Source: a virus | Lineage: Duplodnaviria; Heunggongvirae; Uroviricota; Caudoviricetes | Length of the DNA: 17,832 nt | Direction: 5' to 3' (one strand) | IMG/VR virus record: IMGVR_UViG_2703718823_000018 | Shown here: in pieces, positions 577 to 6,027 of the stretch | Layout: every line of letters starts with the position of its first letter | How positions within the stretch are numbered: position 1 is the stretch's first letter | Made by a program: the position numbers and the translations under genes | Notes under the pieces: generated by a model | Told to the model about the DNA's origin: nothing | What the model saw: only the letters and a program-made list of their open reading frames with translations | The model's database searches: none

Positions 577-883
577 GGATATATGCCTAATCTCTGTATA
601 CAGCATGATGCCGGGTGCCTCCCGGTGAGTTCAGTATCAGCACCTGAACCCGCACCAGATAAGGGATATAACCAACCACCTGTCGCTGATATGCCCCTCC
701 GCACAGGGGGATTCACCATGCCAGTTTCTTTTAACAAATACTCAGTCTGACAGGCAACTGTCAACTGACTGAATTGTGAGACATTTAAAATTTTCGGGGC
801 ATGACTGATACCCGGCTAACCACCTGATGCTTCCTTTTTTAGCAACAAACAGGTCCACCAAAGTGAGACAGAAAAAATAAGTG

Positions 884-960
884 TGGCGCGTTGTACTGGA
901 TTCGAACCAGTGACCGATTGCTTAGAAGGCAATTGCTCTGTCCGGCTGAGCTAACAACGC
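884..960 (-). tRNA. tRNA-Arg (anticodon UCU)
   Basis: Reverse complement gcgttgttagctcagccggacagagcaattgccttctaagcaatcggtcactggttcgaatccagtacaacgcgcca folds as a cloverleaf: 7-bp acceptor stem, TTCGAAT T-loop, anticodon loop cTTCTAa, 3' CCA. Confidence 0.85.
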
Positions 961-973
961 ATGATGCTGATAA

Positions 974-1050
974 TGGACCGCCATCGAGGACTCGAACCCC
1001 GCGCAGCCAGCTCCGAAGGCTGGCGCTCTATCCCGATGAGCTAATGGCGG
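974..1050 (-). tRNA. tRNA-Arg (anticodon UCG)
   Basis: Reverse complement ccgccattagctcatcgggatagagcgccagccttcggagctggctgcgcggggttcgagtcctcgatggcggtcca: acceptor ccgccat/atggcgg with a C1:G72 pair, anticodon loop cTTCGGa, TTCGAGT T-loop, CCA end. Confidence 0.75.
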
Positions 1051-1059
1051 TATGTGATA

Positions 1060-1135
1060 TGGTGGCCCTTGCTGGATTTGAACCAGCGACCTGGCGATTA
1101 TGAGTCGCTCGCTCTCACCACTGAGCTAAAGGGCC
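1060..1135 (-). tRNA. tRNA with CAU anticodon, most likely tRNA-Ile2 (ileX/ileZ-like); Met cannot be excluded from the anticodon alone
   Basis: Reverse complement ggccctttagctcagtggtgagagcgagcgactcataatcgccaggtcgctggttcaaatccagcaagggccacca: cloverleaf with anticodon loop cTCATAa. Closely resembles the E. coli ileX sequence as I recall it. The Ile-Arg-Arg trio downstream of Q is typical of lambdoid and Stx phages. Confidence 0.8.
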
Positions 1136-1175
1136 GGGCGCAGGATAATAACGGTACGTAACTAATCCTGCAATA

Positions 1176-2234
1176 TCATCCATTCTGACTGACTAAATCC
1201 TGTACTTCCCTGACCGTCTGCTCAAAACGTTCAGTCTCCAGCTCAACGCCAGTTGCACGACGCCCCAGCGCCATCGCAGCTTTGACTGTCGAACCCGACC
1301 CCATGAAGAAATCTGCAACCAGGTCACCCGGACGACTGCTCGCACTGATTATCTGCTGCAGCATTTCTGCCGGTTTTTCGCACGGATGTTTCCCGGGATA
1401 GTACTGCACCGGTTTATGCGTCCACACATCCGTGTACGGCACCTGCGCAGTTACGCCAAAATACCGCCGCAGATGCTTATATTCACTCTGCAGTTCCGCA
1501 TACTGCCGGTTCAGTGAAGTATACGTCTCCAGCAGCTGGTGGTGGGGCTTTTCCAGTTCACCGCGCTGATGCTTCTCTTCTGCCACCCGGGCAAACAGCG
1601 CCTGTAATTTCAGATAATCGCTTTCGTTCGGTAGCTGCCACTGACCGGCACTGAACCAGTGCGACACCATGTTTTTCTTTCCTGTGGCATCCACTATCTG
1701 TTTTGCCGTTATCCCCAGGGCAGCACGCGCATCACGAAAGTAAGCAATCAGCGGAGCCATCACATGCTGTTTCAGTGCCCTGCCCTTCGCCTCATACCCG
1801 GCATCTTTCGGGCGATACGGCCCCTGATAATGTTCCGCGAACAGAATGCGCTCTGTGGCGGGGAAATACGCCCTCAGGCTTTCCTTGTTGCACCCGTTCC
1901 AGCGTCCGGACGGCTTCGCCCAGATAATATGGTTCAGCACACTGAAGCGTTCACGCATCATGATTTCGATATCAGATGCCAGGCGATGGCCACAGAACAG
2001 GTAAAGACTTCCGGCAGGTTTCAGCACCCGCCAGAACTGCGCAAGACACTGGTCCAGCCATTTCAGGTAATCATCGTCGCCCTTCCACTGGTTATCCCAG
2101 CCCTCAGGCTTCACTTTAAAGTACGGCGGGTCCGTGACTATCAGGTCAACAGAATTTTCGGGTAACGACCGGATAAATTCCAGGCAGTCGGCGTTGATTA
2201 ACTCACAACTGGATATTTTTACAGTGTTAAACAT
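1176..2234 (-). CDS. Orphan DNA methyltransferase (N6-adenine or N4-cytosine, beta-class motif order)
   Basis: 352-aa ORF with motif IV VTDPPYF near the N-terminus and the AdoMet motif FFMGSGST near the C-terminus. No restriction endonuclease partner is visible. Confidence 0.8.
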   Translation of the reverse strand: MFNTVKISSCELINADCLEFIRSLPENSVDLIVTDPPYFKVKPEGWDNQWKGDDDYLKWLDQCLAQFWRVLKPAGSLYLFCGHRLASDIEIMMRERFSVLNHIIWAKPSGRWNGCNKESLRAYFPATERILFAEHYQGPYRPKDAGYEAKGRALKQHVMAPLIAYFRDARAALGITAKQIVDATGKKNMVSHWFSAGQWQLPNESDYLKLQALFARVAEEKHQRGELEKPHHQLLETYTSLNRQYAELQSEYKHLRRYFGVTAQVPYTDVWTHKPVQYYPGKHPCEKPAEMLQQIISASSRPGDLVADFFMGSGSTVKAAMALGRRATGVELETERFEQTVREVQDLVSQNG

Positions 2235-2370
2235 GGATCATTAAGCCTGTCTCTGATAGGCTCATTCTGCTTTTGCGCAAAGCAGTGGGCCTGAGGTTTG
2301 CTTGTGATCCGGACGCATGAGCAGATGGCTGGTGAGTGCCCCTAACACCCACCAGCCGCCCATTTACCAC

Positions 2371-2398
2371 AAATAAAAAAGCCTTCAGGACTGAAGGC
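2371..2398 (-). terminator. Intrinsic terminator, minus-strand orientation
   Basis: Stem gccttcag / ctgaaggc (2381-2398) with a 2-nt loop; on the minus strand it is followed by TTTTTTATTT (complement of 2371-2380). Overlaps the stop of the small ORF upstream. Confidence 0.5.
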
Positions 2399-2582
2399 GT
2401 CTGTAACAACCGAACTGATAGTCTGCCAGCCCCGCCATAACAAGCTGGGTCAGTATTAACTGGCAGCGTTCGCGTGAAAGGTACGTATTCTGTGCAATCT
2501 CCCCGACTGTCGCCGGTTCGGTGACGCTTAATTCATTAAACACCACTCTGGCGGTTTCGGTCATATCCTGCTGTTTCAGCAT
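2385..2582 (-). CDS. Small putative winged-helix DNA-binding protein (65 aa)
   Basis: ATG at 2582 (MLKQQDMTETARVVFNELSVTEPATVGEIAQNTYLSRERCQLILTQLVMAGLADYQFGCYRRLQS). The longer upstream extension in the ORF track overlaps a terminator hairpin and looks non-coding. The RBS is weak. Confidence 0.35.
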   Translation of the reverse strand: MLKQQDMTETARVVFNELSVTEPATVGEIAQNTYLSRERCQLILTQLVMAGLADYQFGCYRRLQS

Positions 2583-2703
2583 GTCTTTTTCCCTTTTCCG
2601 GTTAACGTGACACACCAATAACTCTTGTCGAAAAAGCCAGCAAGCTGAAAGAACGGTATTAATAACCACCAGCGAATTTATTGCGCTGCTGTATATTACG
2701 GAC

Positions 2704-2726
2704 ACAAAAAAACCACCTTCCGGTGG
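2704..2726 (-). terminator. Intrinsic terminator about 70 nt downstream of the Q-like gene; candidate tR'-like element
   Basis: On the minus strand: ccacc-GGAA-ggtgg hairpin followed by TTTTTTT (complement of 2705-2711). Confidence 0.45.
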
Positions 2727-2799
2727 CTTCCTTGTGCGAAAAAAACTTGCATTTCGCCTCGCGATACAGCCTTGCGAAGCTTATACGGATTGAAGCAGT

Positions 2800-3372
2800 T
2801 TATTGATCAGTTTGCAACATTTTTTTCTCTGTAACAAAAGCCATACGCATGGGGGCATGTAACATAAATTCAGATATCCCCAACCACTGATCAATTCGGC
2901 GTCTGCACGTAACCAACGTCCACTCAGGATGATCTGCATTTAACCTTTCGGCCATTTTCAGTTTGCTCATTCCCCGTCCTTCGTACCTTTGCCGGAGAAT
3001 ATTGATTAGTCCGGGATATTCCCCAAGCACCTCACTGATAACGCGATCAATAATCAACGCCTCTGTGTCTGTACAATGTGACAACCAGCTCTTCTGCTTC
3101 CCTCTGGTCATATCCCGAAAAAATGCCTCAAGTTCCGGTTTTTCCAGCCCGGATTTCTTCATTCTGCGTAAAACCTCATTAACTGCTGTTTTCGTCAGCT
3201 TTTTCGAAACCAGTAACCGGTTAAACATATTTCCGGATTTACCCCCACCGATATACGACCACCGCCCCCACATCCGTAATTTCCCCTGGATCCAGACTGC
3301 TTCCAGCGTGTTCAGGCGTAAATGTTCGCCGCTTTTGCCTGTAATTTCCGGATATATCATATTTACGCTCAC
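2800..3372 (-). CDS. Late-gene antiterminator Q-like protein
   Basis: 190-aa ORF immediately downstream of rusA and upstream of terminators and the tRNA array (canonical Q position). Contains RMWGRWSY, resembling the RWGAWA block of 21/DLP12-type Q proteins as I recall them. Start is either GTG at 3372 (GTGA overlap with the rusA stop) or ATG at 3360. Confidence 0.6.
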   Translation of the reverse strand: MSVNMIYPEITGKSGEHLRLNTLEAVWIQGKLRMWGRWSYIGGGKSGNMFNRLLVSKKLTKTAVNEVLRRMKKSGLEKPELEAFFRDMTRGKQKSWLSHCTDTEALIIDRVISEVLGEYPGLINILRQRYEGRGMSKLKMAERLNADHPEWTLVTCRRRIDQWLGISEFMLHAPMRMAFVTEKKMLQTDQ

Positions 3373-3734
3373 TCACTCTCAATTTTGTAAATCTTCACAC
3401 CCAGCCGACCACCAAGAACAAGCTGACCACGTACAATATTGATTTCATCAAACTGCTCATCGTCCATTAACAACCCCGCATGCGTAAGCGCATCCAGCGG
3501 TGCTTTCAGAATATTGTCCAGGTCACGGCGGCGCTTATCCGGTGGTTCTGCAATAATTTTTATTGCCAACCGTCCGGACAGGCTTAATTTCAAGCGCTGC
3601 TGGCGAACAATAAGCGCCACTGCCCGGCGATAACGCTCCCCGGCTTTTGATACAAAATATGTGCTGCCACGGCGTCGCCAGTAAGTGTTCACCGTCGGCG
3701 GGTAAGGCAAAACAAATTCTATGCGTTCGGTCAT
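3369..3734 (-). CDS. rusA: RusA-family Holliday junction resolvase
   Basis: 121 aa, MTERIEFVLPYPPTVNTYWRRRG...DKRRRDLDNILKAPLDALTHAGLLMDDEQ; the DxRRRDLDN acidic block is the RusA catalytic signature. ATG directly abuts the upstream stop (TAAATG). Confidence 0.85.
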   Translation of the reverse strand: MTERIEFVLPYPPTVNTYWRRRGSTYFVSKAGERYRRAVALIVRQQRLKLSLSGRLAIKIIAEPPDKRRRDLDNILKAPLDALTHAGLLMDDEQFDEINIVRGQLVLGGRLGVKIYKIESE

Positions 3735-4799: not shown

Positions 4800-4800
4800 A

Positions 4801-5511: not shown

Positions 5512-5545
5512 TGAAAATAAAAACAAAAACCCGCCGAAGCGGGTT
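5512..5545 (-). terminator. Intrinsic terminator of the hok transcript
   Basis: On the minus strand: aacccgc-TTCG-gcgggtt hairpin followed by TTTTTGTTTTTATTTT. Confidence 0.55.
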
Positions 5546-5613
5546 AAGTGCGAGTGCGTTGAGGATGCCTGACTCATCAGAGGTGGCGAGGGATTTCTCC
5601 CCCGCCTGGTCTC

Positions 5614-5769
5614 TTACTCCTCAGGTTCGTAAGCTGTGAAGACAGTGACCTCCGTCTGGCCGGTTCGGATTCGTACCTCGCAGAGGTCTTTCCTCGTTAC
5701 CAGTGCCGTCACAATGACGGTAATACAGATGACGATCAGGGCGACTAACATCGCCTTTTGCTGCTTCAT
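5614..5769 (-). CDS. hokD: Hok/Gef-family type I toxin (HokD/RelF-like), 51 aa
   Basis: Translation MKQQKAMLVALIVICITVIVTALVTRKDLCEVRIRTGQTEVTVFTAYEPEE: transmembrane helix plus conserved RKDLCEVR and TEV..FTAYE blocks of Hok proteins. AGGAG 8 nt upstream of the ATG. Absent from the ORF track (below 60 aa). Confidence 0.9.
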   Translation of the reverse strand: MKQQKAMLVALIVICITVIVTALVTRKDLCEVRIRTGQTEVTVFTAYEPEE

Positions 5770-5825
5770 AGCCTGCTTCTCCTTGACCTTTCGGTCCGTA
5801 AGAGGCTAATCTCTATGTGTCGCAT
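5766..5825 (-). CDS. mok-like upstream ORF (19 codons) coupled to hok
   Basis: ATG at 5825 (MRHIEISLLRTERSRRSRL); its TGA overlaps the hok ATG (cTATGAag). The uORF start lies inside a hairpin (tctatg-tgtcg-cataga, 5812-5828). Analogous to mok but much shorter than plasmid R1 mok. Confidence 0.4.
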   Translation of the reverse strand: MRHIEISLLRTERSRRSRL

Positions 5826-6027
5826 AGATATGGCCTCAGATTAATGTTAAGCGTCTTGCAGGACGCGTAATGTTAACTGGGGCTTTTCTCTATCTGCCTT
5901 TTGGTGTTCATGCCTGAGACAGATAGCCTCAAGCACCCGCAGTTATTCTACTTAACTAAGATTTCCCCGCAAACCGTTTTTGTCCGGCACAGTAAATATC
6001 CAACTAAACCAATGGCGTTCGCTGTAT

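Follow-up and report, generated by a model that had tools for sequence, protein, structure and literature searches.

Two DNA methyltransferases borne by prophages of Escherichia coli O104:H4 C227-11, M.EcoGII and M.EcoGI, are the closest described relatives of a methyltransferase encoded on the virus record IMGVR_UViG_2703718823_000018, the subject of this analysis, which is a stretch of 17,832 nucleotides referred to below as the window. M.EcoGII methylates adenine in any context and its constitutive expression is deleterious, and neither it nor M.EcoGI is expressed in the normally growing lysogen (Murray et al., 2018; PMC5778455). The same authors named phage 1720a-02 as carrying a very similar enzyme (PMC5778455). 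The published work on M.EcoGII gives no description of a flanking small open reading frame (ORF), of terminators or of a leader, all of which accompany the methyltransferase gene of the window. The resulting cassette is very common and holds a known gene at a known position, the control elements being the part of it that is undescribed. The arrangement is probably one of pR'/tR'-gated, Q-dependent late expression of an anti-restriction methyltransferase downstream of a moron-like small gene.

RNA polymerase that has been modified by Q resists the terminators lying downstream, as is established for phages lambda, 82 and 21. Lambdoid late operons can also contain morons, inserted units consisting of a promoter, a gene and a terminator (Hendrix and colleagues). 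Short pR'-tR' RNAs are established in phages lambda, 21, 82, P22 and the Shiga toxin (Stx) phages (PMC7547250). The window has an element resembling the pR'-qut-tR' units (late promoter, Q-utilisation site and terminator) of lambda, 82, 21, 933W and H-19B, in that it lies right after the Q gene and possesses a promoter-like element, after which come a conserved initially transcribed stretch and, about 75 nucleotides on, a strong intrinsic terminator; it also co-varies with the type of Q and heads the late genes. It differs from these in that its Q belongs to the DUF1133 subfamily, a distant match to the Pfam family of the phage-82 type, and in that its site shows no sequence relationship to characterised qut sites. 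A further parallel may be drawn with com-mom of phage Mu, which likewise concerns an anti-restriction enzyme modifying adenines promiscuously, silent in the lysogen and toxic when mis-expressed, with a small ORF and a structured region upstream. However, there is no relation in sequence or fold, Com being a zinc-finger RNA binder and Mom not being an S-adenosylmethionine methyltransferase, whereas the small protein here is a predicted winged helix that some loci lack, so the resemblance would be functional only.

In the mechanism proposed, the late promoter, together with a Q-utilisation site, would lie directly after the DUF1133-type Q gene, and without Q the late transcripts would end about 75 nucleotides downstream at a first terminator (terminator 1), in the manner of the lambda 6S RNA or StxS. 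The small winged-helix gene would have a weak promoter and a terminator (terminator 2) of its own, and both terminators would be passed only by Q-modified RNA polymerase after induction. Since read-through would need the modified polymerase, the methyltransferase would be made late in lytic growth. Most adenines of the progeny DNA would then be methylated, giving broad protection against adenine-methylation-sensitive restriction by the next host, and in the lysogen, to which it would do harm, the enzyme would stay off. Late, Q-dependent expression had been suggested in an earlier note made on this DNA from its letters, and by analogy it would fit the 94%-identical M.EcoGII, which lysogens do not express and which is toxic when made constitutively; the main idea of that note agrees with a proposal already made by the M.EcoGII authors. 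A pR'/tR' unit, a moron-like small gene with its terminator and a leader devoid of a Shine-Dalgarno sequence would offer concrete elements to explain how a lysogen silences a harmful enzyme.

On the minus strand the elements follow in the order Q-like gene, hairpin 1, 65-residue ORF, hairpin 2, leader, methyltransferase gene and three tRNA genes (Table 1). All those listed in the earlier note were recovered, where it had placed them, by ORF, Pfam, terminator and tRNA scans.

Table 1. Features of the methyltransferase cassette and its surroundings in the window.
Feature	Position	Strand	Basis or remark
Q-like late antiterminator gene, DUF1133 family	2800-3372 (RefSeq start: ATG at 3360)	minus	Pfam
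Candidate pR' with qut-like block	2753-2817	minus	conservation across Q-variant loci
-35-like TTGCAA	2812-2817	minus	candidate pR'
TG element	2796-2797	minus	candidate pR'
-10-like TTCAAT	2789-2794	minus	candidate pR'
Near-invariant 28-nucleotide block GCTTCGCAAGGCTGTATCGCGAGGCGAA	2753-2780	minus	4-locus comparison
Intrinsic terminator 1 (tR'-like)	2703-2736	minus	16-bp extended hairpin and T7 run
Terminator 1 core stem CCACC/GGTGG	2713-2726; T7 run 2706-2712	minus	sequence
Chi GCTGGTGG between terminator 1 and small ORF	2666-2673	minus	kept in several homologous cassettes
Promoter-like block pair before small ORF	2615-2643; TTGCTG 2638-2643, 17-nucleotide variable spacer, TATTGG 2615-2620	minus	alignment
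65-residue winged-helix protein gene (predicted fold)	2385-2582	minus	dN/dS, homologues, predicted fold
Intrinsic terminator 2	2375-2398; hairpin 2381-2398, T6 2375-2380	minus	terminator scan
Conserved untranslated leader	2235-2374; Chi at 2349-2356	minus	conservation
Orphan beta-class N6-adenine DNA methyltransferase gene, 352 residues, M.EcoGII orthologue	1176-2234	minus	PF01555, identity
tRNA, ileZ-like, anticodon CAT (Ile in RefSeq)	1060-1135	minus	ARAGORN, Rfam, homologue annotation
tRNA, argN-like, Arg-TCG	974-1050	minus	ARAGORN, Rfam, RefSeq/phage annotation of homologues
tRNA, argO-like, Arg-TCT	884-960	minus	ARAGORN, Rfam, RefSeq/phage annotation of homologues
Chi sites GCTGGTGG	91, 1535, 4109, 6479	plus	
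Chi sites GCTGGTGG	2349, 2666, 4567, 15957, 16546	minus	

The methyltransferase matches PF01555 over residues 29-340 (E 7e-44; 150.9 bits against a cutoff of 26.7) and shows the motif order of the beta class, with VTDPPYF (DPPY) at residues 33-39 followed by FFMGSGS (FxGxG) near residue 310. Its relatives in the PDB include M.RsrI, CcrM and M.MboIIA. No restriction-enzyme domain was found among the window ORFs scanned, which beyond position 4800 were those of at least 90 residues, and with the Pfam match and the motif order this bears out its earlier description as an orphan of the beta class. Like M.EcoGII and M.EcoGI, it is an orphan enzyme of a lambdoid prophage with beta-class motif order. 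Over the full length, 327 of 349 residues (94%) are identical (E 0.0) to an M.EcoGII reference that was machine-read from the text of the SUPREM supplement (PMC11551740), such that some of the differences may be reading errors; M.EcoGII has 349 residues against 352 here, with about 20 substitutions. The best phage match is 1720a-02, which carries the whole cassette, with 97.8% nucleotide identity over the tRNAs, the methyltransferase gene, the leader and the small ORF, and from this match and the 94% identity it follows that the gene is already known. The M.EcoGII enzyme family is a commercial reagent and a textbook 'Trojan horse' of phage anti-restriction, to which this copy alone adds nothing new. 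By its likeness to M.EcoGII, the present enzyme would be expected to be non-specific also. The earlier note had anticipated a target motif, an expectation that does not sit with an orthologue of an enzyme methylating adenine in any context; a motif search would likely find none, and the lack of a motif would be no refutation of the note's idea. M.EcoGIX, considered as a relative, was dropped, the literature describing it as plasmid-borne and single-strand specific.

The Q-like ORF matches DUF1133 of Pfam with an E-value of 4e-104 and also passes Phage_antitermQ (PF06530, phage-82 type) over residues 72-148 (32.3 bits against a cutoff of 26, E 1e-7), while DUF1133 has been labelled as a Q antiterminator in one survey via HHpred. 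The gene comes after those for DUF968 and RusA, as it does in O157:H7 prophages, where the identical DUF968-RusA-DUF1133 context is seen. Between Q and terminator 1, where the earlier note had placed a late promoter, there is a conserved promoter-like block that appears to be specific to the Q type, which makes that placement plausible. In phage vB_EcoS-673R7, whose Q is only 74% identical and differs in DNA at the 3' coding end, a 52-nucleotide block starting from the stop codon is near-identical, and a different hairpin with a T-run stands at the same distance from this block. The same pattern is shown by O157:H7 strain 2149 and E. coli Z1323, in which the block is again near-identical despite differing 3' ends of Q. 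An A-tract, TTG, a 17-nucleotide spacer and TTCAAT or TTGAAT are kept in all four loci, with a preceding TG in three of them, and the near-invariant stretch across the four is GCTTCGCAA(A/G)GCTGTATCGCGAGGCGAA. The block was found in 1536 of 5426 E. coli genomes and heads the late region in every case examined. Taken as sequence comparison, this supports the view that the block and terminator 1 are a pR'/qut/tR' unit, which would yield a transcript of about 75 nucleotides. The DUF1133-type Q with its putative qut site, present in over a quarter of complete E. coli genomes, is yet uncharacterised.

A separate observation concerns E. coli Z1323 (L057), where a module of an isrK/C4-antisense RNA and an ORF6N (anti-repressor-like) gene at 639-1501 separates the DUF1133 Q gene from the conserved block. 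The arrangement resembles antQ-isrK-anrP of Gifsy-1, with the conserved block still directly before the late genes.

Both hairpins of the cassette have the make-up of an intrinsic terminator, namely a G+C-rich hairpin followed by a U-run. The hairpin of terminator 1 is located 74 bases past the Q stop codon, and its extended 16-bp form folds with -23.9 kcal/mol (z -6.15), none of 200 shuffles being as stable. At the 5' edge of every aligned cassette there is a hairpin with a T-run, the stems of which vary yet pair (CCACC/GGTGG, CCCGC/GCGGG and CCTCG/CGGGG), and a terminator is annotated at the same cassette edge in the SfV record. Terminator 2 has a 7-bp stem with four GC pairs, and the stop codon of the small ORF (2385-2387) is inside its hairpin; the energy taken by itself is modest (-11.2 kcal/mol, z -1.9). 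A G+C-rich hairpin with compensating stems was found just 5' of the leader in 36 of the 46 loci scanned, those devoid of the small ORF included. Terminator-like sites number ten in 4 kilobases, against 4.1 +/- 1.7 in shuffles, and the recurrence of both hairpins at the same positions with different compensating stems places the two beyond chance.

The 65-residue ORF between the two terminators was thought in the earlier note to be possibly not real. This is contradicted by purifying selection and by the conservation of the protein across Enterobacterales, on which grounds the ORF is a real gene. The identical frame is annotated by RefSeq in a 99% identical genome as WP_000917768.1. Measured against the window, the ratio of non-synonymous to synonymous substitution rates (dN/dS) is 0.06-0.16 where dS is unsaturated, and in most of the distant pairs dS is saturated with dN still at 0.08-0.2. 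At the protein level, identity to homologues from other phages and genera lies between about 37% and 98%; homologues of the mEp460 type have a three-codon insertion that keeps the frame, and conservation across cassettes extends to the start codon and the ribosome-binding site. In the protein database, 335 clusters of homologues are present, many bearing the NCBI name 'TrmB family transcriptional regulator', and the score of the small ORF against Pfam TrmB (PF01978) falls below the threshold for that family (16.5 bits against a cutoff of 25.6). The AlphaFold model with the highest predicted local distance difference test value (pLDDT 89.3, the best of five, the other four being much lower) has the topology H1-S1-H2-H3-S2-wing-S3, with helices at residues 4-17, 26-33 and 37-49 and strands at 53-56 and 59-62. 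Foldseek returned generic domains of the winged helix-turn-helix (wHTH) type only, the best of them those of IclR/MarR regulators and O-methyltransferases, with a query-normalised template modelling score of up to 0.83. The protein is thus predicted, by this model, to have a winged-helix fold.

About a dozen loci possess the leader and the methyltransferase gene with no small ORF, which makes the latter an accessory part of the cassette and no obligatory partner of the enzyme. The hairpin is kept in the small-ORF-less loci (about 2700-3000; L012, L013, L014, L015, L017, L018, L020, L021, L024, L034 and L051), and in L012 and L018 the terminator immediately adjoins the leader.

Before the small ORF, 23 aligned cassettes have CTTGCTG, 17 variable bases, (T)TATCTG or TATTGG and then GTATGTCA, with invariant spacing. 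The match of these blocks to the sigma-70 consensus is weak, and they went unflagged by the promoter scan. The earlier note mentions neither these blocks nor the leader described below. The hypothesis is put forward that the small gene is a self-contained promoter-gene-terminator unit, in other words a moron. In common with morons, it has promoter-like blocks 5' and a hairpin terminator 3', lies inside the late operon and is present independently of its neighbours; it differs in that its promoter is putative. If the blocks are a promoter, the presence of a terminator between the small ORF and the methyltransferase gene is explained, and this suggests that terminator 2 may end the small ORF's own transcript and so keep it from the toxic gene.

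A number of points weigh against Q-gated late expression as set out above. The sigma-70 consensus promoter scan flagged no minus-strand site, and the proposed -10 TTCAAT is without the usual A at position 2; for these two reasons the start site of the late transcript is one that we infer. At least five T in the eight bases after hairpin 2 are found in only 19 of 46 loci, the window representing the lineage with a full U-tract. More than half of the homologous loci have a weak U-tract or none, and there the methyltransferase gene could be reached, independently of Q, by transcripts from the putative promoter of the small ORF. One or two additional genes separate Q from the cassette in some phages. 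The non-specific activity of this copy is assumed from the 94% identity, and a literature search for transcript or expression data on the cassette, or for a study of a DUF1133 Q, found nothing specific.

The leader, with 135-140 nucleotides between hairpin 2 and the methyltransferase ATG, is the best-conserved part of the cassette, its median nucleotide identity to 42 distant loci being 80% compared with 71% for the methyltransferase coding sequence and 69% for the small ORF. This stretch is non-coding, as homologues have single-base indels in it, in-frame stops are situated just 5' of the ATG and the overlapping ORFs are unconserved. No Shine-Dalgarno sequence precedes the methyltransferase ATG. 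Of the 68 copies of an invariant 21-mer of the leader in viral contigs, 66 have a methyltransferase ATG at +130 to +133. A covariance model of the leader found no copy beside the most divergent methyltransferases (L031, L043, L052 and L055), restricting the leader to the enterobacterial clade, and Rfam at permissive thresholds gave only chance-level matches in 2200-2860, the region of the leader and the post-Q RNA (best 26 bits against a gathering score of 100).

The predicted fold of the leader has an energy of -57.5 kcal/mol (z -3.75). Covariation as assessed by RNAalifold and pair counts consists of one pair seen as CG 21, AU 8, UA 5 and UG 4 times, along with one compensatory change in a long-range helix, and for one model the covariation score was above all 500 shuffles. 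An alternative fold, similar to the minimum-energy structures of single sequences, is equally compatible and has zero covariation. While the conservation of the leader, as seen in its alignments, is solid, no particular structure is claimed. As a Chi octamer is located inside the invariant 21-mer, constraint at the DNA level may account for part of this conservation. It is conceivable, if on the doubtful side, that the leader is a cis-regulatory element dedicated to M.EcoGII-type genes and would act as a second safety lock, with or without the small protein, like Com/Mom.

Three coding explanations for this region were rejected. A leader peptide (MGGWWV...) would have codons that are invariant even at synonymous sites, a stop shifting with the indels and no Shine-Dalgarno sequence; an N-terminal extension of the methyltransferase is blocked by in-frame TAA and TGA at -9 and -6; and an overlapping 60-residue ORF (2227-2409) has single-base indels in homologues and no Pfam match. 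There is also an upstream ORF of four codons (ATG ATC CAT GTT TAA; 2227-2241, minus strand) which overlaps the methyltransferase start codon and is present in this lineage only.

A different way of keeping the enzyme silent would be control that is mainly post-transcriptional, with the leader fold limiting translation of the toxic enzyme until a late factor, possibly the small protein acting on the RNA, relieves it. The leader is conserved beyond both of its flanking coding sequences, keeps a fixed distance to the methyltransferase ATG, has a stable fold with some covariation and lacks a Shine-Dalgarno sequence, all of which would suit such control, and a parallel with Mom has been made in a review. 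The covariation, however, comes from very few pairs, the second and equally compatible fold has none, and the accessibility predicted for the start region is low to a moderate degree only (0.35-0.55). Moreover, the Chi site in the 21-mer indicates that the conservation may in part concern the DNA, some loci do without the small ORF, and there is no homology to Com or Mom. This is considered unlikely as the main form of control, and post-transcriptional control through the leader can coexist with Q gating.

The position of a small DNA-binding-type ORF directly 5' of a methyltransferase gene is also reminiscent of the C proteins of restriction-modification systems, and the cassette might accordingly be self-regulated, the winged-helix protein controlling itself and the methyltransferase from an internal promoter in C-protein style and largely independently of Q. 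Such a reading would account for the promoter-like blocks at fixed spacing before the small ORF and for the predicted wHTH fold; read-through would be possible in the many homologues with no U-tract after hairpin 2, and the cassette moves as a whole behind different types of Q. Yet C proteins have an Xre-type helix-turn-helix and time the restriction enzyme via C-boxes, whereas the protein here is a predicted winged helix, there is a terminator between the two genes and no nuclease partner is present among the window ORFs scanned. The match to a promoter is weak, M.EcoGII is silent in lysogens, the dozen or so loci mentioned above have the leader and methyltransferase gene without the small ORF, and Stx2a_1447 (L002) has lost the -35-like block through a 10-nucleotide deletion with its cassette otherwise intact. 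Self-regulation of this kind is therefore regarded as quite improbable.

That this copy might be a sequence-specific or regulatory (epigenetic) methyltransferase could be argued from the 22 of 349 aligned positions that differ from M.EcoGII, many of them central, but M.EcoGI, with 333 of 349 residues identical to M.EcoGII, is treated together with it as one close family and some of the differences may stem from machine reading, and the probability of this is rated as very low. The notion that the 65-residue ORF is no gene and that the terminators only bound short non-coding Q-utilisation transcripts, for which its short length, the sub-threshold Pfam match and the frequency of short pR'-tR' RNAs in lambdoid phages might be cited, is contradicted by the dN/dS values, the frame-preserving three-codon indel, the conserved start and ribosome-binding site, the 335 protein clusters and the confident wHTH model, and deserves next to no credence.

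The cassette is widespread. Among 5426 complete E. coli genomes, 3307 match some part of positions 800-3400 and 641 have at least 80% of this region, while the cassette region is matched by 292 phage records, mainly those of Stx2a, Stx2c, Stx2d and Stx2e converting phages. Stx2 phages with the cassette have stx2AB after the tRNAs, and in SfV, mEp460 and the Citrobacter phage phiNP the small ORF and methyltransferase gene are placed between Q and the lysis genes. Each time it has a Q gene on one side and lysis or stx genes on the other (SfV, mEp460, phiNP, P27, Stx2a_1447 and O157:H7), and it moves as a unit behind several Q types. From other species, mostly Enterobacterales, 48 loci were retrieved, with protein identities of 57-99% for nearly all and 36% for one outlier. 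In many Stx2 phages the cassette is found between the late promoter and stx2, and its two terminators and leader consequently lie on the path of the toxin transcript.

The window itself is a lambdoid (Rac/Qin-like) E. coli prophage, with the cassette region at the entry to its late operon. The plus strand at the right end has genes for an integrase, a large exonuclease-domain protein and a cI-like repressor. Running leftwards on the minus strand are replication genes, hok/sok, the DUF968, RusA and Q-like genes, the cassette and then the start of a gene for a DUF1737/SASA esterase. A stretch with 99.3% identity is carried by E. coli DETEC-S792, in which the same genes are annotated by RefSeq. 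The hokD/sok toxin-antitoxin locus is located at 5614-5938 on the minus strand (sok 106.7 bits) and is followed by a weak isrK-like match at 5524-5605 on the same strand, which at 24 bits is under the gathering score. Between the tRNAs and the esterase gene, at 545-750 on the minus strand, there is a full-length match to the STnc100 small RNA family (Rfam RF02076; 174.6 bits). It occupies the slot in which Stx2 phages have stx2AB, and stx genes are absent from this prophage. The start of the esterase gene, coding for a carbohydrate esterase of DUF1737/SASA type and resembling nanS-p of Stx phages, takes up 1-318 on the minus strand before the gene leaves the window at its left end.

The window also contains nine Chi octamers (GCTGGTGG) against 0.49 expected from shuffles, and the Chi site in the leader and that between terminator 1 and the small ORF are both oriented with late transcription.

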